DNA of 64,000 bases from a virus (Duplodnaviria; Caudoviricetes): positions 20,697 to 84,696 of IMG/VR virus record IMGVR_UViG_3300020045_006302; one strand, 5' to 3'. A program made the position numbers and the translations under genes. Below the pieces are notes generated by a model. The model was not told the origin of the DNA and searched no databases. It saw only the letters and a list, made by a program, of their open reading frames with translations. Shown here piece after piece: positions 23,550-64,000 of this stretch; the stretch's first letter is position 1, and each line of letters opens with the position of its first letter.

Positions 23550-23715
23550 ATGAAAGAATTAACTATAGGAAAACTAATATATACTATAATTTTTGTAGTA
23601 TATATTAGGTGGTTAATAAAAGAATTTAATAATAAAGATAAAATCAAATGATAGCAATATCCACAAATTACTACGACAAAAACGGAAATAATATAACAAT
23701 TAATATATTTAAAAT

Positions 23716-24776: not shown

Positions 24777-25271
24777 ATGTCAACAACAAAACAAGCAGTA
24801 ATATCATTAGAAACTGCAAAAGAAGCTTATAAATCAGGTTCAAATCTATTAGTAAAATTTGCATTAGGTAATTTTACAAAAGAAGAATTAGAAGAAGTAG
24901 AATTGCCTAATAAATGGGAGGATTTAGATTATATTAAAGGATTTTATGTAGATAGTATGTCTATAATTAAACCGTATTCTCAACCTACTTCAAATGCAGG
25001 TAAAAATACATTTCCTACTAAAGAATATGCAGAAGCAGCTTTAGCATTATCTCAATTACTTCAACTAAGGCAAGTATATATAGGAGATTGGGTTCCTGAT
25101 TATAAAAGTGAAGGATATACTGTATATTCAATTTATGTATATAAATGTAAATTAGATACAGGAGTATTTGTAAATACACAACATATATTAAGTTTTCCTA
25201 CATCAGAATTAAGAGATAAATTCTATAATAGTTTTAAAGATTTATTAGAAATAGCAAAACCATTATTATAA
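24777..25271 (+). CDS. Hypothetical protein of a family common in Bacteroidota phages
   Basis: LP.KWEDL..IKGFYV..FPTKEYAEAALALSQLLQLR..GDWVPD..LSFPT.ELRDKF pattern. Confidence 0.55.
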   Translation: MSTTKQAVISLETAKEAYKSGSNLLVKFALGNFTKEELEEVELPNKWEDLDYIKGFYVDSMSIIKPYSQPTSNAGKNTFPTKEYAEAALALSQLLQLRQVYIGDWVPDYKSEGYTVYSIYVYKCKLDTGVFVNTQHILSFPTSELRDKFYNSFKDLLEIAKPLL

Positions 25272-25453
25272 TGAAAAATTCAATACAAGCAATGTTAATA
25301 TGTATTATATCAGCAATAATATTATATTTACTTCTACTATATCAATTTAAATTAGAAGAAAATTTAGCACAATTAATTACATTTCTATACTATATTATAA
25401 GAATAGAAATAAAAGAAGTTCAATATGATATCCAAGATATTAAAAAGAAATAG
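25271..25453 (+). CDS. Small membrane protein
   Basis: 60 aa, hydrophobic; its TAG stop overlaps the first base of the ribozyme. Confidence 0.5.
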   Translation: MKNSIQAMLICIISAIILYLLLLYQFKLEENLAQLITFLYYIIRIEIKEVQYDIQDIKKK

Positions 25454-25517
25454 CCGAAATACCTATTAATTTAGGTATCTTACAGAGATAATCTACTGTA
25501 ACTGATGAGGCAGATTA
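25453..25517 (+). ncRNA. Type II hammerhead ribozyme
   Basis: GCC-GAAA-UACCU/AGGUA-UC (cleavage after 25479)-UUACAG/CUGUAA-CUGAUGA-GGC; full catalytic core; loop I UAAUCU (25489-94) can pair with the 3' tail AGAUUA (25512-17). Confidence 0.9.
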
Positions 25518-25539
25518 ATTAACAATTAAATATAATAAT

Positions 25540-25827
25540 ATGAGTAAATTATACACAGAAGAAAAAGTAAAAGAATTATTAACATCTTTATTATTTAAAA
25601 GTCCTTCGATGGTATTTTTATATCCTGATGAAACTGTAAATGATATTGATTATAAAGGTATGTTTGGTTTTAATAATTGGATTAAAGATAATCTAAATAA
25701 TGAAAATCAAAATTCAGATATAAAAGAACATCTACAATTTATATATCAACGTATGAGATTAAATCACGGAGAAAGTTCTAATGTAGATTATATGATTAAA
25801 TTTGAAGAAATAATAAATAACCTTTAA
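25540..25827 (+). CDS. Hypothetical protein
   Basis: Co-oriented ORF after the ribozyme. Confidence 0.5.
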   Translation: MSKLYTEEKVKELLTSLLFKSPSMVFLYPDETVNDIDYKGMFGFNNWIKDNLNNENQNSDIKEHLQFIYQRMRLNHGESSNVDYMIKFEEIINNL

Positions 25828-25839
25828 TATATAAATACA

Positions 25840-26172
25840 ATGTCAGCTACTAAAAATAGAATGCAATGGAATACAACAGAAGATAAAATATTAGAAGAAG
25901 AAATGTTAAAAACTACTTTTAATAAAGAAAGTTATATTATACTTGCAGAAACTTTAAATAGAACAGAAGATTCTGTTAAATCAAGAGCAAGTAAATTAAG
26001 AAGTAAATGGAAATTAAAAGAAGAAATACAAGAAACTTTTAAACCAAAAGAAGTAGATAATAGTAATGATTACGTTATAGTACAAGGTAAAATAAACTTT
26101 GGTGCTATTACTTTAGAAGGAGAATTTACTATTAAAGGTGCTTTTACTATTAAACCTATTAAAAATACATAA
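25840..26172 (+). CDS. Myb/SANT-like HTH protein
   Basis: WNTTEDKIL..LAETLNRTEDSVKSRASKL. Confidence 0.6.
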   Translation: MSATKNRMQWNTTEDKILEEEMLKTTFNKESYIILAETLNRTEDSVKSRASKLRSKWKLKEEIQETFKPKEVDNSNDYVIVQGKINFGAITLEGEFTIKGAFTIKPIKNT

Positions 26173-26184
26173 TAAATTAATTTT

Positions 26185-26241
26185 AGAATAGTAAGAGATA
26201 ATTAATATTAATAATATAATTTCGGAAACTCTTACTATTCT
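26185..26241. repeat. Perfect 13-bp inverted repeat with 31-nt AT-rich spacer
   Basis: AGAATAGTAAGAG (26185-97) / CTCTTACTATTCT (26229-41), intergenic. Confidence 0.75.
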
Positions 26242-26259
26242 TTTAAAATATATAATAAA

Positions 26260-26484
26260 ATGATAAAAAAATCTTTTTTAAAATGGTCAGAATGGCAAAC
26301 AGGATACATAAAGTTTAATAATAATGTACAAATATCATATTCAATATATAGTTGGGCATTACCTATAAATATAGAAATTGCTTCATATATAATATTTATT
26401 GATATATTATGTTTTGGAATAAGTTTTCATACATATAAAAGCCCTTGGAGTAAAAGATATAAAAACAAAAATAAAAACAAATAA
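26260..26484 (+). CDS. Small Trp/aromatic-rich hypothetical protein
   Basis: Co-oriented ORF. Confidence 0.45.
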   Translation: MIKKSFLKWSEWQTGYIKFNNNVQISYSIYSWALPINIEIASYIIFIDILCFGISFHTYKSPWSKRYKNKNKNK

Positions 26485-26486
26485 AC

Positions 26487-26732
26487 ATGAAAAAACTTTA
26501 CATTATTTTACTATTAATAACATTAACAGTAAATGCAAGAGAAAAATTAAGAATACCAAATCCGGTACAAAATGAAATATATGTAGAAAATGCTACATAT
26601 ATTAAAATATTCACATTACAAGGAAGATTAGTATGTGAAATACAATCTAATAAAATAGATGTATCAGGATTAGCTACAGGAATGTATTTTGTAGTAACAA
26701 ATGTAGGAGAATGTACAATAATTAAAAACTAA
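26487..26732 (+). CDS. Signal peptide plus T9SS type-A C-terminal sorting domain, no passenger
   Basis: MKKLYIILLLITLTVNA signal; IPNP..IKIFTLQGRLV..IDVSGLATGMYFV..IIKN matches the Por secretion tail consensus. Confidence 0.8.
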   Translation: MKKLYIILLLITLTVNAREKLRIPNPVQNEIYVENATYIKIFTLQGRLVCEIQSNKIDVSGLATGMYFVVTNVGECTIIKN

Positions 26733-26734
26733 TT

Positions 26735-26992
26735 ATGGACAATAAATTAAAAGTTTGGGAAATACTTCAAAATTTAATAAAAATAAATTTTAAATTATAT
26801 GAAACTTTAATAGATAATTATGCTTATTATTTTGATAAAGTTAGTAAATTAGCCGAAAGAGATTATAATTCTTATCGGGAAACTACAGAAGATTTAGGAG
26901 AAATATTAGTAAATTTTGATTATAAAGAAATACTAAAAGAAGATGATAAATTTTTAGAAGAATTTGAAAAACTAATAAAAATGATTAAATAA
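26735..26992 (+). CDS. Hypothetical protein
   Basis: Co-oriented ORF. Confidence 0.45.
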   Translation: MDNKLKVWEILQNLIKINFKLYETLIDNYAYYFDKVSKLAERDYNSYRETTEDLGEILVNFDYKEILKEDDKFLEEFEKLIKMIK

Positions 26993-27210
26993 TGAAAAAT
27001 AATTTACACATTCCAATATTTATAATAATAGGTATATTATATCTATCATTTATTCCTATTAAAACAGGAAATAGACAAATAGAATTTCCTGAAGAAATAG
27101 GATTAATACAAAAAGGAGATACAATAGTAATACATAGAAATAATGGAAACATTAAAATAGAATATTATCGTAAACCTGTAATAGATGGGACTTTATATAT
27201 AGTAAAATGA
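26992..27210 (+). CDS. Small membrane-anchored protein
   Basis: N-terminal TM helix; GDTIVI motif. Confidence 0.45.
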   Translation: MKNNLHIPIFIIIGILYLSFIPIKTGNRQIEFPEEIGLIQKGDTIVIHRNNGNIKIEYYRKPVIDGTLYIVK

Positions 27211-27518
27211 ATATCTCTATTCAATATACTCAGTACAAAAATAATATATATAGAGGAACTGTATTTGAATTAATAGATATATTAGAAAATAATTATTTTT
27301 CTATATACGAAAGTGATGATAAATCTACTTTATATTTAAAAGATAGTAAAGAAAATAAAACTTATGAATCTTTATATAGAAATGTAATATATTGTAGAAA
27401 ACATAAAAAACAATATGCAAAAGGTACATTAGATATGTATCATTATACAATTTGGCAATTAGCTAAAAAGAGTGAAAGACTAAAAGATTTACTTAAACAA
27501 TTTAATAATTATACTTAA
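27207..27518 (+). CDS. Hypothetical protein
   Basis: Co-oriented ORF. Confidence 0.45.
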   Translation: MNISIQYTQYKNNIYRGTVFELIDILENNYFSIYESDDKSTLYLKDSKENKTYESLYRNVIYCRKHKKQYAKGTLDMYHYTIWQLAKKSERLKDLLKQFNNYT

Positions 27519-27524
27519 TTAAAA

Positions 27525-27674
27525 ATGAAACCAAGAATTACAACAGGAAAATTAGTAACATCAACTAATCCAATAACAAGAAGTTTATCTTCAAGATTTA
27601 ATATAGAAGTACGATATACTCAATCGTATCGTACAATAGAAAGAACTTATAAAGATGTAGACTTTAAATGTTAA
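27525..27674 (+). CDS. 49-aa basic peptide (below the ORF track cutoff)
   Basis: MKPRITTGKLVTSTNPITRSLSSRFNIEVRYTQSYRTIERTYKDVDFKC, A-rich start context. Confidence 0.4.
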   Translation: MKPRITTGKLVTSTNPITRSLSSRFNIEVRYTQSYRTIERTYKDVDFKC

Positions 27675-27702
27675 ATCCGGCTTAAAACTGGATTTTATTT
27701 TT
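27673..27702 (+). terminator. Rho-independent terminator
   Basis: AAATCCGG-CTTAAAA-CTGGATTT, then TATTTTT. Confidence 0.65.
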
Positions 27703-57061: not shown

Positions 57062-60000
57062 CTATTCAAAGGTCTGTACCGAACTGTTTATAAACCTATA
57101 ACCTTGGTTCAGGAATGGTACTATACGACCTGTAGAATGGCTTAACTTGCTATCTCCGGCATATTCTCCCGTTTTGTAATTATCGTCGCCTGTAACGGCT
57201 GTAATGACGTCGCCAGTCCACTTAATTGTGTTATCTACTAAAGATAATGCTGGAATTACATCTTTAAATATTTTTCTTCCTTCTGCAGGATTTACATATA
57301 ATAGCATATCTGTTCTTAGTCTTAATCCTTGATTAAATAATACATTGTAAGCATAATTTTCTTCATCATCATCACCTTTTAATACTGCTCCTAATGCAAG
57401 TAGTAATAATTGTGCATTAATAACTAAAGTAATTTCCATTGATAATCTTCTTAAGTTTGCAGCATCTACTTGACTTAAATTTAGATTATTGAAATCTGTA
57501 TTTTTAAATATAGTACCAAATGAATTATTTTTTATTACTGATTTTAATATACTTCCATATAAATTTAATGTATTTTTATCTAATTTAGTATTTTCTGCTA
57601 AACTTCTATATCTACCTTTTACTTGTAAATCTAATAAATGGTCTGTACGTTCTTTACCAAACCTTACAATTATAGCATCTACTAACCAACTTCTAAACTG
57701 TATTACTGCTCTACCTAAAATATTTCTTTTTATTCTCGGAGAAGAAGATGGGTCATAATTACCATGTATTCTTTTAGCTATAGCTTGGTCTACTTTAATA
57801 CGAGTTTTTGTTATTAATTCTTTTGGTTCTTCTCCGTATTTTTCTGTATTCCAATTTCCTTCACTATCAAAACCTTCATATAAATTAATTTCTCCATCTT
57901 TAGTAGTAGTTTTAGTATTAAGCATTATTGCTATCATTACAGGAGCCTGATTTACATATTCAGTTGACCTATATATTTGATAAGGATTTAATGCTTGTGC
58001 TTTTTTCTTAAGCATACTTGTATTACTATTTACATTAAATTCTTCTGTAGCATCTTTAAGTGTATTCCAATTGTACATTAAATTTGTTATTTTATTTGCA
58101 TCTCCTAATTGTAAATTATTAAAAGAAACATTTTTAGCAATACTTGCTGATACTAATTTATATGCCGTTAACATTTGATTAGTACTAAATAACTCATTTC
58201 CTGCTCCTTCTACAATATTAGATATAAATCCAAATCCTGCATTAGATACACCTCCTAAAAAGTTCCAACCCATTCCTAATAGTTGAAAATATTTTAATAC
58301 ATTATCTCCATATTTAGAATATACTCTATTACTTCCTAATTGAGATTTTTGTACTTGTAAAGAATTTTTAGTAGTATCATATTCTATTTGAGATATTTCT
58401 TTATTAGCTAATGAAGTTTCTAATTGTTCTATTACGGTATCAATTTCTTTTATTTTATTTTTTTCTTCATTAGTATAAGTTTTACTTCCTATTCCTTCCT
58501 CTTCTTTACCACTATTATAATAATTTAAGTCCATAAAATGTTGAAGCATTTTCTTCATATTTATAAAACTTTCTTCAATAGGTTTTTGATGTATTTCATT
58601 ATTACCTGAAATTGTAATAGCTGTTCCATCTCCACGTCTATTTACTTCTTTCATTGTATCAATAATAGATTTAGCCATTTTTACATTACCTTCTATTTCT
58701 GATTTATGTTTATAAGCAAGTGAAGTAATAGAAAATAATTTAAGTATTTTAGGTAAATCAGTTGCATTATCTTTTGTAAGTTCTGCAATTTTATCTAATC
58801 TCCATTCTTCTAACATTTCTACTGGAGCAGGTTCTCTATTCTCTATTTGATATTTAGCAGCTTGTAATGCTATATAATCATTTATTTCTTTATAATGGTT
58901 TTTAATCATTCCTACTCTCATTTGTTTAAGAGGTTTTTGAGTAAGAGGGTCTATATCAACTACAGCGTTACTTCCATAATTAGATTGTGTAGATTTTACT
59001 AATGCATCATTTATTACTCCAAATCCGGCTTTTAATCCTCCATCAAAGAATTGATTTATTACTGATTTCTCTAATTCAGGTAATCCATTATATGCTAATT
59101 GTTTTTGTTGTTCTTCTGATAAGAAACTTGTTAATTGTTTTAATGAATTATTAAATGTATTATAGAATTGTATAAAATCTGTATCAGCTTCTATTCTTTC
59201 AAATCTTTTATCTTTTTTATCTTCATTACCAATAACTTCATAATAATTTTGAGAATTAAAGTTATCTAATTGTGATAAATAAGAAGGAGAACCTTCTTTA
59301 ATAAAAGTTGCTAATTTATATGGACTATTTTGATTTATCCATCTTGAATATAAAGAACTTGCATTTACATCATTAGATATATCTGCTGCTTTTGCTAATC
59401 CAAATCTTCCTATTAAATATTCTATTTGTGCATCTAATGCATTTTTATAATTATCTATTTTTTTCTCTTGTTTAAGTATATAATCATTATAGATAAAATC
59501 TCCTAATTGTTCTTTTAATTTACTTCTATTATTTTCAACAGCTTTAGTTATTTTTCCATTCTCAGGAAAATAATCTTGTAGATTTATATCTAAAGTATTT
59601 TTCTTAAGCCAATTAATATATGCTACGAAATTTATAGGATTTCTTTCTTCGTTTAAGTTACTTAATGCTCTATTCCTTTCCCTATAGAAAGAACTTCCAA
59701 ATGGTTTAATTATGTGATTATTAAATCTTCCTTTTTCATCTGTCTGTAGAAATATACTAAATGGATTTTTATTATCTATTACTTTAAGTTTTTCAATAAC
59801 TTTATCTGTAACTCCATCTATATTCTTTAATATTTTTCTACTTTCGTCTTCTGTTTTAATATTAGCTTCTTTTAAATCTATCATTAATGAACTTAATAAT
59901 TCATTTCCTGATGAACTTATATCTGTAAATAAAGAAGCTAATTCACTTTCATCTTTATATTTATCAAATATATCAGATATTGTTATATCTTTACCAGTTT

Positions 60001-63000
60001 TTTGTTTTACATATTCTTGTAGATATTTATTTTTAATTTGTAATAATTTCTGTTCTGCTGAATATGCTTTACTTTCTAAATCTCCATACATATTATTTAA
60101 TAATTCAGAACCAAAATGTTTATCTTGAAATACTCTTTGTTTAGCTACTTTCCAAAATTGTACTGTACTATCTATAAAATTAATATCCTCAATACTTAAT
60201 GTACGTTTAAACATTTCTTGTATTTTAGCTAATTCCTGTTCTCCGTATGCATGTAAATCTACTAACTTAGGTAAATCATTTACTTTACGTAATTTTTCTC
60301 TTTCTACTACTAAGTCATTTTCTAAAGTTGTAATTTTAGCGAAATCTTCTTTTGCTTTTGCATTATTAAGATTTTTTCTAATCTCACGTATTCTATAATT
60401 AATTACATCTAAGTAATTTTTATAATAACCCTTTTCTTGTTCTGTAGCAGAAGATGCATCTACATTTATACTATTTAATACTTCTAAATCTGAATAAGTT
60501 TTATATTGTACATCTACAAAGTTATTAATTTGTGTAGCAATTAAATTGGCTAAATTTTTATTAATAAATGTTACAATTTCTTTTGCATTTTCTTTTTCTA
60601 CATAATCATCATTTTCATCTACTAATCTAAATTTGTTATCAATATATTCTTTAGTTCTTACGTACTTAGGAACTGTTACTTCTTTTTGTAAATTTCTATT
60701 TACTTTTTCAAATAACTGGATAGTTTCATGTAAAACTCCTTCTAAATTACTATCTGAAATTACTCCTAATGATACTAATAAATCTTTAATTCTTTTAATA
60801 AATCTTGACCATAATGAAGTATTTTCATTTTTAAGATTATTAAGTATATTTTGAAATTCTTTATTAGTAATAGCATTAGCTACAAATTCATCTAATGATG
60901 TTACATTATACATTAATCTTTCAGTAGCATTTAATGCTTTACCTGTAGACATTTTATTTAGTAACTTATCATAAGCTTCTTGTCCATATTTAGATATTAA
61001 AGCTTTTTTAGTATCTTCTCTTAAAGCTTCTAATCTTTTAGTATGTACTGTATTCTTTTTTAATTCTTGTCTTAGTACTCCATGTATCATTTCTTCTAAT
61101 AATACACGTTGCATTTCATTTTCTCCTTTTATATTATTAGGATTAATTTCTATTCTTACAGGACGTCCTTTTAATTTAGAAGTATAAGTTGCACCTTTAG
61201 CATTTAGATTATTATTTAAATATATAGAAGTTTCTGCTAAATATGGAACTATAGGCATTAATTTATTTGCCATATATGATAATATACTATCACTACTATC
61301 TGAAATATTAGTTAGTATATTAGTATATTTACTTTCATTACTACTATTATTATCTGTTAATGAATATTTATCCTCTAAAGAATTACTTTCATTATATAAT
61401 CTATCTCCTATTGCATTTGTATCTAAATTTAAAAATTGATATACTTCATTTATTGTATTCGGTATATAAGTACTAACTGACTGTTCTTGTATAGGGAAAG
61501 CTTGAGAAGCTTGAGGTAAATAATTATAATTATCTGCTGTATTAGCATATATTACAGTTCTTGCTGCAAATTCTGCATTTAAATCATATTCATTCATTAC
61601 ATCATTACCTAATGTATCAATCTGATGATAAACTCCATTATAATCTTTATATACATCATAACCCTTTCTACTATTCACAGAAGGTATTGTAATTATATTA
61701 GGAAAATATGTAGTATCTACTCCTTCATTAAATATTAATACTCCATCTTCAATCCTTTCTATAGATTCCATAAATACACTTTTATAATACTTTTCAGGAT
61801 TATGTTGTATATGTTGAGTTAAGAAATTATTAAAATGTTGATTTACATTTACACTTTTTCCTTCTATATAAGAATTTTTAATACTTTCATAATATCCTAT
61901 ATCTTTTAAATATGTAACAGGTATAAATTTAATTAATTGTGTACCTTTTTGTACTCCTCCTGTTATACCTTGATGTATAATTAAATTATCAATAACATCT
62001 TTAGTAGTCGTAGATTTTCCATTATATTCTCCTATATCTTTAGGATTTACAATCATATCTATAATAGTATTAATAATTACTTCTTCTTCTAATTCTTGAG
62101 TTGAAGCATTAATAAAACTAATTGCAGTAGGAACTTTACCTGAAACATCTATAGGAGCATTAAATTCTCCTACTTGTATTCTATCTATAAAAGGATTTAA
62201 TAAATTAGGTTTTTTCTTCATTTCACTTATTATAGTTCCAAGTGATTTATGAGTTTCTGTATCTAATAATAAATCTTCTTTAGCTTCAGTTATAGTATTA
62301 TATTTATTAAATAATTGATAAGTATTAGAAGATATATATCCTTTATATTCTAAGAATGTTTTTTGTAATTCTTCTGCTCTTGTAGATATTAAACTTGATG
62401 ATGTAGTTAATGATACTATATTATTTAATGTAGTATTTAAAAATCCTTTATTATAAGGAAAATAATTACTCCATAATTCTGTATTAAATAAATTAGCATA
62501 AACAGCTGCATATCCATTAATAGTTGCAGGTTTAATCATAACATCTTTATATAAATAATACCCATCACGTTTCTTTTCTTCTAAAAAGTCTTTCTGTAAT
62601 TCACTATCTAATTCTAAATATTCTTTATCATTATTATAATAATAATAATCTCCTACAATTTTACTTATGTTACTTATATTACTATTTTGTCCTAATCTTA
62701 ATAATGCATTTGCTTTTTCTATAGAATAAAAACTATTCTTACCAATACCTGCACTATCTACATTTATTGCACTTTGTACAGTTTTAAGTTGTTTACCTTT
62801 TTTAGTTAAATCTTTAAATAATTTCAAAGCTGCTTGTTGGTAATCTCCCTCTAATATATTATCTGCAATATACCTATGCATATCTTTTAATTCTGTATTT
62901 TGTAATAGAATTTCTTCTTCTATCATTAAATCAAAATCTCCATTAAGTAATGCATCTTGTTCTTCTTTATTATCTCTTGTTTTTATATATTCCTTAATTA

Positions 63001-64000
63001 AAGGTTGATTAATAAAAGCAATAGATACTTCCAAAGGCATTCCTGTTTGATTTAATACTCTTAACGCATCTGCTGTATTACTATTAATATTAAGTTTATA
63101 CAATAATTGTTCTTTAGTATCATCTAATGCTACAGATTGAAATTCAGATATATTTTCTGATTTATATCCTCCTTTTGCATCTTTCATATCATTTAAATTA
63201 GTACTTGAATAAGTAGCTAATCTAACCCTAAATGGAATTTGTTTTGCTTTTCCATCTTTATCAAAAACTGTAGTCATAAAGTTAACCGGTGCTGTAACTT
63301 CTTGTAAACTTGCATTAAATACACTATCTAATGAAAATGAACCAACTAATGCTTTACCTGCACGAGAACTAAAATATCTATATGATTGATAATCTTCTGA
63401 TAAAGGTGTCCATTTATTATCTTCTATAGGATAATAAACATTTTTTACTATATCTTGTAGAGTATCAAATCCTAATGCTTTTGCTCTTTGTGATTGTACT
63501 TCTATAGCAGGATTTTCTAATACAGCTTTAGTATATTTTAATATATTATTTTGATATACCATTTCTTGTCCTCTAAAGATATTTTTACCTTCTATACTTT
63601 CTTGAGTAATAGCTGATAGTTTACCTTCTTTATCTACAAAAGTATTATACATTTGAGTATATAATTTATCTACGTCAAAATCTGAACCCATTTGAGTTAC
63701 AAAATCTTTAGAAGCTACTATTATATCTCCCATATACTTAGGGGTAAATCCTACCACTTTAATTAAACTCATTGAATTTAATCCCTGTGTTGGTATTCTA
63801 AATCCAAATATTTCTAATAATTCAGGAGATATTTTATCTGTATCTAAATATCCATCTTTAATATATTTATCTAATTTAAGTAAACTACCTTTATTATCCC
63901 AAAATTTAAATGGTAATAAAACTTCTGAATATTTTATAGTTCCATCTTCATTTCTTGTTGTTTTTAATGTACCATCCCAATCCTTAGTAGTTATTAATTT
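57062..64000 (-). CDS. Giant virion RNA polymerase / ejection polyprotein (beta-prime-like catalytic region, zincin-like domain, long helical C-terminus); 5'-truncated by the window
   Basis: Frame stays open from 63772 to the window edge (FGFRIPTQGLNSM); catalytic GSDFDVDKLY at 63668-82; zincin-like EEMIH at 61082-96. Confidence 0.88.
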   Translation of the reverse strand, partial: KLITTKDWDGTLKTTRNEDGTIKYSEVLLPFKFWDNKGSLLKLDKYIKDGYLDTDKISPELLEIFGFRIPTQGLNSMSLIKVVGFTPKYMGDIIVASKDFVTQMGSDFDVDKLYTQMYNTFVDKEGKLSAITQESIEGKNIFRGQEMVYQNNILKYTKAVLENPAIEVQSQRAKALGFDTLQDIVKNVYYPIEDNKWTPLSEDYQSYRYFSSRAGKALVGSFSLDSVFNASLQEVTAPVNFMTTVFDKDGKAKQIPFRVRLATYSSTNLNDMKDAKGGYKSENISEFQSVALDDTKEQLLYKLNINSNTADALRVLNQTGMPLEVSIAFINQPLIKEYIKTRDNKEEQDALLNGDFDLMIEEEILLQNTELKDMHRYIADNILEGDYQQAALKLFKDLTKKGKQLKTVQSAINVDSAGIGKNSFYSIEKANALLRLGQNSNISNISKIVGDYYYYNNDKEYLELDSELQKDFLEEKKRDGYYLYKDVMIKPATINGYAAVYANLFNTELWSNYFPYNKGFLNTTLNNIVSLTTSSSLISTRAEELQKTFLEYKGYISSNTYQLFNKYNTITEAKEDLLLDTETHKSLGTIISEMKKKPNLLNPFIDRIQVGEFNAPIDVSGKVPTAISFINASTQELEEEVIINTIIDMIVNPKDIGEYNGKSTTTKDVIDNLIIHQGITGGVQKGTQLIKFIPVTYLKDIGYYESIKNSYIEGKSVNVNQHFNNFLTQHIQHNPEKYYKSVFMESIERIEDGVLIFNEGVDTTYFPNIITIPSVNSRKGYDVYKDYNGVYHQIDTLGNDVMNEYDLNAEFAARTVIYANTADNYNYLPQASQAFPIQEQSVSTYIPNTINEVYQFLNLDTNAIGDRLYNESNSLEDKYSLTDNNSSNESKYTNILTNISDSSDSILSYMANKLMPIVPYLAETSIYLNNNLNAKGATYTSKLKGRPVRIEINPNNIKGENEMQRVLLEEMIHGVLRQELKKNTVHTKRLEALREDTKKALISKYGQEAYDKLLNKMSTGKALNATERLMYNVTSLDEFVANAITNKEFQNILNNLKNENTSLWSRFIKRIKDLLVSLGVISDSNLEGVLHETIQLFEKVNRNLQKEVTVPKYVRTKEYIDNKFRLVDENDDYVEKENAKEIVTFINKNLANLIATQINNFVDVQYKTYSDLEVLNSINVDASSATEQEKGYYKNYLDVINYRIREIRKNLNNAKAKEDFAKITTLENDLVVEREKLRKVNDLPKLVDLHAYGEQELAKIQEMFKRTLSIEDINFIDSTVQFWKVAKQRVFQDKHFGSELLNNMYGDLESKAYSAEQKLLQIKNKYLQEYVKQKTGKDITISDIFDKYKDESELASLFTDISSSGNELLSSLMIDLKEANIKTEDESRKILKNIDGVTDKVIEKLKVIDNKNPFSIFLQTDEKGRFNNHIIKPFGSSFYRERNRALSNLNEERNPINFVAYINWLKKNTLDINLQDYFPENGKITKAVENNRSKLKEQLGDFIYNDYILKQEKKIDNYKNALDAQIEYLIGRFGLAKAADISNDVNASSLYSRWINQNSPYKLATFIKEGSPSYLSQLDNFNSQNYYEVIGNEDKKDKRFERIEADTDFIQFYNTFNNSLKQLTSFLSEEQQKQLAYNGLPELEKSVINQFFDGGLKAGFGVINDALVKSTQSNYGSNAVVDIDPLTQKPLKQMRVGMIKNHYKEINDYIALQAAKYQIENREPAPVEMLEEWRLDKIAELTKDNATDLPKILKLFSITSLAYKHKSEIEGNVKMAKSIIDTMKEVNRRGDGTAITISGNNEIHQKPIEESFINMKKMLQHFMDLNYYNSGKEEEGIGSKTYTNEEKNKIKEIDTVIEQLETSLANKEISQIEYDTTKNSLQVQKSQLGSNRVYSKYGDNVLKYFQLLGMGWNFLGGVSNAGFGFISNIVEGAGNELFSTNQMLTAYKLVSASIAKNVSFNNLQLGDANKITNLMYNWNTLKDATEEFNVNSNTSMLKKKAQALNPYQIYRSTEYVNQAPVMIAIMLNTKTTTKDGEINLYEGFDSEGNWNTEKYGEEPKELITKTRIKVDQAIAKRIHGNYDPSSSPRIKRNILGRAVIQFRSWLVDAIIVRFGKERTDHLLDLQVKGRYRSLAENTKLDKNTLNLYGSILKSVIKNNSFGTIFKNTDFNNLNLSQVDAANLRRLSMEITLVINAQLLLLALGAVLKGDDDEENYAYNVLFNQGLRLRTDMLLYVNPAEGRKIFKDVIPALSLVDNTIKWTGDVITAVTGDDNYKTGEYAGDSKLSHSTGRIVPFLNQGYRFINSSVQTFE
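59677..59698 (+). repeat. 22-bp dispersed motif copy (TTTCCCTATAGAAAGAACTTCC)
   Basis: Inside the RNAP gene. Confidence 0.88.
61478..61499 (-). repeat. 22-bp dispersed motif copy (TTTCCCTATACAAGAACAGTCA)
   Basis: Inside the RNAP gene; inverted relative to the copy at 59677. Confidence 0.85.

Follow-up and report, generated by a model that had tools for sequence, protein, structure and literature searches.

Does the short gap between two small orphan open reading frames (ORFs) in an AT-rich phage genome hold a genuine, catalytically competent ribozyme and, if it does, what would a self-inflicted cut at this place mean for the transcript that carries it? To our knowledge, the biological role of the self-cleaving ribozymes of bacteria and phages is still unknown, 15 years after these RNAs had been found to be widespread. 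An earlier note on this stretch of DNA had identified an intact type II hammerhead ribozyme with a pseudoknot, encoded on the sense strand of an intercistronic gap, and the analysis described here fully supports this identification. What the ribozyme does for the phage is a question of a different kind, which is approached below through the genes around the element, through its relatives and through the ribozymes that occupy a comparable place in related phages.

The record from which the DNA derives is a complete genome of 84,696 bp with direct terminal repeats and a GC content of about 25%; its bases 20697-84696, a stretch of 64,000 nucleotides, constitute the window, in which positions are counted throughout. 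Minus-strand genes at 0.9-18.6 kb, among them those for the major head protein, the portal and the large terminase, lie on one side of a non-coding region, after which a plus-strand arm starts with about 25 small ORFs at 22.4-29.6 kb and proceeds with genes for an exonuclease, a Dda-like helicase, a family A DNA polymerase (PolA) and a second helicase and with an rIIA-like gene. The genome is classed as that of an uncultured crAss-like phage, its capsid protein being about 32% identical over 95% of the length to crAss-like phages, with Flavobacterium phage records among the matches, and its PolA being about 27% identical to crAss-like phages. The host is probably a member of the Bacteroidota, with which the presence of a T9SS C-terminal sorting domain in an ORF of 81 amino acids fits. 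Besides, a minus-strand ORF of 2236 amino acids (57062-63772) has no match in PHROG or Pfam; in size and position it recalls, as we take it, the virion RNA polymerase of crAss-like phages.

All positions of the hammerhead core are present with zero deviations, C25479 takes position H17 (non-G), and the sequence aligns to the consensus without a core mismatch (Table 1). The permutation is that of type II: loops close off stems I and III, stem II has none, and G25509 and C25455 form the G10.1-C11.1 pair. In the stem descriptor, stem II comprises 3 bp, stem I is built from the strands UUACAG (25480-25485) and CUGUAA (25496-25501), and stem III from 25459-25465 and 25472-25478, A15.1-U16.1 being counted among its 7 bp. 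The complete sense-strand core and the stems described in the earlier note were thus all recovered at the places given there, with stem III measuring 7 bp, and the proposed pairing of loop I with the 3' tail is exact, UAAUCU at 25489-25494 being the perfect complement of AGAUUA at 25512-25517. This pseudoknot consists of 6 Watson-Crick pairs at an offset of 0 from the 3' end of stem II, at least 4 bp being needed for membership. Equally, the borders had been drawn correctly: G25453 is a base of stem II and at the same time the end of the upstream TAG (25451-25453), and the spacing of about 20 nt to the next ATG corresponds to 22 nt between the pseudoknot tail and the ATG at 25540.

Table 1. 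Positions in the window of the hammerhead ribozyme, its parts and the two flanking cistrons.
Feature	Positions	Strand	Basis
Type II hammerhead ribozyme as a whole, with the 3' pseudoknot tail	25452-25521	+	RF02276 25452-25519; model R1 25452-25521
Upstream cistron, hydrophobic orphan ORF of 60 aa, stop abuts the ribozyme	25271-25453	+	ORF list, homologue search
Stem II, 5' strand GCC (11.3-11.1)	25453-25455	+	sequence reading; pairs with 25509-25511
Core G12 A13 A14	25456-25458	+	sequence; columns invariant in alignments A2 and A3
Stem III hairpin, 7 bp, A15.1 (25459) to U16.1 (25478), loop 25466-25471	25459-25478	+	sequence, MFE fold, descriptor
Predicted cleavage site, C17 = 25479, scission 25479/25480	25479-25480	+	hammerhead numbering applied to the sequence
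Stem I hairpin, 6 bp (25480-25485 with 25496-25501), 10-nt loop 25486-25495	25480-25501	+	sequence, MFE fold, descriptor
Pseudoknot strand in loop I, UAAUCU	25489-25494	+	perfect complement of 25512-25517
Core C3 U4 G5 A6 U7 G8 A9 (CUGAUGA)	25502-25508	+	sequence; invariant in A2 and A3
Stem II, 3' strand GGC (10.1-10.3)	25509-25511	+	sequence
Pseudoknot strand in the 3' tail, AGAUUA, directly after stem II	25512-25517	+	sequence; chance test; column covariation
Downstream cistron, orphan ORF of 95 aa, ATG 22 nt past the pseudoknot tail	25540-25827	+	ORF list, homologue search

The search with Infernal against Rfam Hammerhead_II that had been suggested in the earlier note places the element in the family RF02276 with 39.3 bits against a gathering score of 37 and with full coverage of the model, at E = 5.8e-7 when 221 nt are compared with the whole of Rfam and at E = 5.3e-8 for the whole genome; in the same genome scan, the match is absent from 14 of 14 control genomes. 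Rfam scans of a 10-kb piece and of the whole 64-kb window miss the element, in gathering and E-value modes alike, because the speed filters drop a short, AT-rich match of 39 bits, a control demonstrating that this is loss in the filter and not absence. Routine annotation would miss this AT-rich hammerhead. A second covariance model, R1, was built from 33 type II hammerheads of unrelated viral contigs with the window copy left out, and with the filters off it assigns the element 57.8 bits (E 6e-14), the runner-up in the 64-kb window reaching 9.1 bits.

Neither of the two covariance models scores the pseudoknot as pairing. Among random genomic or shuffled pairs of loop and tail, 0.8% form at least 6 Watson-Crick pairs at the place of the pseudoknot, and the pseudoknot adds roughly 100-fold against chance. 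It shares its columns with 24 other viral hammerheads, and these columns covary (GC, AU, UA and CG pair types); as the aligned set of 24 had been chosen for stems and pseudoknot, the percentage of pairing is given by construction and the point of the comparison is positional homology. The minimum free energy (MFE) fold of 81 nt is a three-way junction (z = -2.9; 0 of 200 shuffles as good). Upon folding with 241 nt of context stems I and III survive and the 3-bp stem II is lost from that MFE fold, and for loop I a 3-bp extension of stem I appears as an alternative that competes with the pseudoknot.

A chance look-alike or a decayed relic that does not cleave, as might be suspected from a Rfam score just 2.3 bits over the gathering score, from the ease with which AT-rich sequence provides short stems and from the lack of conservation support at the locus itself, is very improbable given E values of 5e-8 per genome with Rfam and of 6e-14 with the independent model, a core without deviation and a pseudoknot with its roughly 100-fold weight against chance. 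Furthermore, a much looser descriptor, applied to both strands of 1.6 Mb of DNA from related phages, returned only 2 weak, chance-like matches. At the level of sequence and models, the match is far beyond chance and the identification as a hammerhead can be considered secure, and identity, completeness, strand and intercistronic position of the element are equally established at this level.

Type II hammerheads, the pseudoknot seen here, its importance for fast cleavage and their intergenic occurrence in phages have been described by Perreault et al. (2011; PMC3088659), and such ribozymes with the pseudoknot are active and cut polycistronic transcripts in vitro and in E. coli (PMC3088659). The element in the window resembles the RF02276 type II hammerheads in its permuted topology, the identical core, the short stem II, the pseudoknot immediately after stem II and the location in intergenic phage DNA, but its stems and pseudoknot are unusually AT-rich, with AAUC/GAUU in place of the consensus GGCC/GGCC, and only one other hammerhead from DNA of at most 30% GC is found among the matches listed. 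The exact type II pattern with a GCC/GGC stem II occurs in at least 119 stretches in viral contigs; in 80 matching viral loci that are listed, at least 115 copies, up to nine per contig, pass the stem descriptor and 61 possess a pseudoknot of at least 4 bp. A narrower type II hammerhead pattern is also abundant in metagenomes, among the matches listed. The ORF context of the at least 115 viral hammerheads was considered as evidence and set aside as uninformative, since GC-rich contigs are full of spurious long ORFs. Dense type II arrays, with up to eight matches in 4 kb and a spacing of about 200-900 nt, were observed in the viral contigs L105, L138, L094, L104 and L119, and these are the known gene-flanking arrangement.

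Two previously described settings come closest to the one in the window. The hammerheads in prophage operons of Clostridium scindens and, at ardA, of Agrobacterium tumefaciens (Perreault et al., 2011) are likewise located on the sense strand, between cistrons and among small accessory genes, and those that flank single genes have been proposed to cut long phage transcripts into shorter mRNAs (PMC3088659). They form arrays, whereas a single copy is present here, and the genome analysed is a complete crAss-like genome with terminal repeats and not a prophage near an integrase. In the HHphage variant of haloarchaeal viruses, on the other hand, the hammerhead precedes replication genes of a lytic virus within an early polycistronic unit, as it does here, and a 5' end has been mapped within three nucleotides of the cleavage site (PMC3088659); that virus infects archaea, however, and its ribozyme has a variant core and stands immediately before the helicase gene, whereas the copy in the window has the canonical core and stands 4.8 kb upstream. 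Thus, the kind of element has been known in phage operons since 2011 and is abundant in phage and metagenome DNA, and the present one is a further example. In the literature searched, no paper links hammerheads or self-cleaving ribozymes to crAss-like phages.

The element occupies 78% of the 86-nt gap, on the coding strand and within a run of tightly packed co-directional ORFs, and no ORF of 40 amino acids or more overlaps the gap on either strand. The block of small ORFs to which the gap belongs follows the divergent non-coding region and precedes the genes for the exonuclease, the helicase and PolA, the distance from the element to the helicase gene being 4.8 kb. The designation as a phage early operon in the earlier note agrees with this gene order, in which small orphan ORFs precede the replication genes, and the early status itself is read from gene order only. 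The downstream gene with a T9SS tail that had been pointed out is real: an ORF of 81 amino acids (26487-26732, plus strand) about 1 kb downstream of the ribozyme encodes a Por_Secre_tail sorting domain (Pfam PF18962) with almost no passenger and is 54-62% identical in the two closest relatives. Nothing ties this ORF specifically to the ribozyme. To judge from a terminator-like hairpin at 27673-27695, the downstream product of cleavage would comprise the nine ORFs at 25540-27674, the T9SS-tail ORF among them.

In the whole genome, no pistol, hatchet, twister-sister, twister-P1 or type I or III hammerhead was found, and the element is the single ribozyme of a known class. A ribozyme array in the sense of ribozymes in successive gaps of one operon is not present, as there is one hammerhead and the remaining long gaps in the block show plain hairpins instead. 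These two other long intercistronic gaps of the block (23558-23617 and 26180-26249, plus strand) contain near-perfect long hairpins (z = -3.8 and -3.7, with 0 of 200 shuffles as stable), which could be RNase III sites or terminators, and with them several RNA elements may divide the block into segments.

A genuine, catalytically competent type II hammerhead that is transcribed within the sense-strand polycistronic mRNA of a presumed-early block of small genes and cuts this mRNA between two cistrons is the probable explanation of the locus. As extrapolated from knowledge of the family, the RNA would fold co-transcriptionally, with stems I, II and III arranged around the conserved core and with loop I and the 3' tail joined by the 6-bp pseudoknot, which would keep stems I and II parallel. 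Cleavage at 25479/25480 would then result from an attack of the C17 2'-OH on its own phosphate. The upstream RNA would end after the stop codon of the 60-aa ORF with the stem III hairpin and a 2',3'-cyclic phosphate, and a 5'-OH would mark the start of the downstream RNA, which would open with the stem I hairpin and run for 60 nt up to the ATG at 25540. The fate of the downstream cistrons, be it stability or translation, would thereby be uncoupled from that of the cistrons upstream. We infer that the element is transcribed and cleaves in vivo, and that it uncouples the stability or the translation of the cistrons at 25540-27674 from the upstream ones. A ribosome that terminates at 25451-25453 would cover stem II, which counts against activity at that place. 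That phage mRNAs are split for differential stability, as put forward for this locus in the earlier note, is a standing published hypothesis and not a new inference, processing into RNAs of different stability having been proposed as the role of such ribozymes (Perreault et al., 2011, PMC3088659; Weinberg, 2019, PMC6765202). Among the possible functions, stability or uncoupling is ranked first, a mere passenger second and the making of a leader third; the latter two are weighed below, together with the evidence from relatives.

The clade defined by the helicase consists of metagenomic contigs, many of them of 80-85 kb, with 44-56% identity. Eleven loci from ten helicase homologues were sampled together with 80 more distant viral loci. 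Among the relatives, synteny extends over the replication genes; the small ORFs are not conserved, the block being hypervariable. Searches with blastn against phages, for related loci and homologues and for synteny with tblastn and tblastx found no locus with the same flanking genes. The upstream ORF of 60 amino acids has a match only to itself among 1.84 billion representative proteins, and equally the downstream ORF of 95 amino acids matches only itself in a collection of 5.8 billion clustered proteins; in the loci of the relatives, neither of the two has a counterpart. With both flanking ORFs being orphans, there is no orthologous copy of the hammerhead in the collections in which compensatory changes could be sought. 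As negative results with Rfam are uninformative for matches of about 40 bits, own descriptors and R1 without filters were used on the relatives. No type II hammerhead was found in ten loci of the nearest relatives (145 kb in total; model R1, filters off) nor in 50 whole related viral records, and the descriptors detected no type I or III hammerhead in any relative locus. Being missing from all sampled relatives, the hammerhead is sporadic and not essential to the clade.

Several candidates for a closer connection to other loci were rejected. The weak similarity of the downstream ORF to an ORF of the related contig L085 is insignificant (23% identity, pairwise E 0.005). The closest hammerhead among the matches listed (L227:2449-2520) shares its tail with the element and is much like it in geometry; it is located on an unrelated contig of 2.5 kb and is not an orthologue, and a RAGATH-34 match in L212 stays with 34.4 bits below the cut-off of 60.7. 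Two observations on relatives stand for themselves. A tRNA-like element in a 540-nt gap of the early block (L088:5553-5678, plus strand) scores 46.2 bits with Rfam tRNA; its acceptor, D and T arms are canonical, its anticodon arm carries a 58-nt insertion, and ARAGORN does not call it. Furthermore, the family A DNA polymerase gene is split by an ORF for a LAGLIDADG homing endonuclease in L211:3724-7106 and in the P0007 contig, which suggests an intron or intein, and the PolA gene in the window is uninterrupted.

The scattered distribution of the hammerhead invites the view that the ribozyme is real and active and yet a passenger, which came with a horizontally acquired cassette of ribozyme and orphan ORF and persists because its cutting is harmless. 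Two flanking ORFs without relatives in billions of proteins, a block of small ORFs that is hypervariable between relatives, the absence of the hammerhead from all relatives sampled, the unrelated context of the most similar hammerhead among the matches listed (L227) and the variation of ribozyme classes between relatives are all in line with such an arrival. The intact core and the perfect 6-bp pseudoknot, by contrast, argue for ongoing purifying selection, a search for flanking repeats gave AT-rich chance matches only and no boundaries of a mobile element, and the layout from the stop codon to about 20 nt before the ATG recurs with a pistol ribozyme in two relatives, which suggests selection for placement. 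On balance, a passenger is considered unlikely.

The pistol ribozymes (RF02679) just mentioned deserve a closer description. One is located at L085:1385-1456 (plus strand; 51.6 bits against a cut-off of 34.5) in the closest relative whose contig covers the early block and whose helicase is 55% identical; the other, at L032:4783-4842 (plus strand), identical with G031:21125-21184, scores 58.8 bits against 34.5 and belongs to a more distant record of 85.7 kb. Like the hammerhead, both pistols lie on the sense strand in the block of small ORFs, 5.2-5.3 kb upstream of the homologous helicase gene as compared to 4.8 kb for the hammerhead, and the distance from their 3' ends to the start codon is 21-22 nt for both, as compared to 20-22 nt for the hammerhead, which makes 20-23 nt across three phages and two ribozyme classes. 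They differ from the hammerhead in an unrelated fold and catalytic core and in non-homologous flanking genes, and because the genes flanking the pistols are not homologous to those flanking the hammerhead, the positions are analogous and not demonstrably orthologous. Hammerhead, twister and pistol ribozymes have been found to share phage gene neighbourhoods, which suggests that it is the cut and not the motif that counts (PMC4604425; PMC6765202), and the relatives, with a different ribozyme class in a like position, support this view. A more far-reaching reading, that the clade keeps one slot in the early block, about 5 kb before the Dda-like helicase gene and about 21 nt before a start codon, which is filled by a self-cleaving ribozyme of any class under selection for the cut, is entertained as a doubtful, tentative proposal. 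In such a slot the cut might, for example, yield a 5'-OH leader that escapes host RNases dependent on the 5' end.

A related suggestion takes the leader itself as the purpose: the cut would create a defined 5'-OH leader for the translation of the ORF at 25540-25827, releasing an AU-rich initiation region both from translational coupling and from structure upstream of it, and would not set a half-life. The distance from ribozyme to ATG, constant at 20-23 nt in three phages and with two classes of ribozyme, speaks for this, as does the pre-ATG motif AACAATTAAA, which directly follows the ribozyme both here and in L085; that motif also precedes genes without a ribozyme, however: in L085 it is a leader before ATGs in general, and the window shows no enrichment of it. 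Ribozyme-dependent initiation of translation reportedly has a precedent in RNA viruses (PMC13725137), but with a type II hammerhead the product retains 60 nt of structured RNA at its 5' end. The making of a leader as the reason for the cut is regarded as quite improbable, and uncoupling of downstream from upstream cistrons by an intercistronic cut stays the preferred reading.

What is known about hammerheads is unchanged by this copy. It adds a clean, single and canonical hammerhead in the complete genome of a little-studied, AT-rich lineage of crAss-like phages, and the swap of ribozyme class among related crAss-like phages is a mildly interesting extra. One ribozyme with two orphan genes constitutes a simple construct for a reporter test and, should the slot in the early block be real, the clade would offer a clean natural system for testing the purpose of phage ribozymes.
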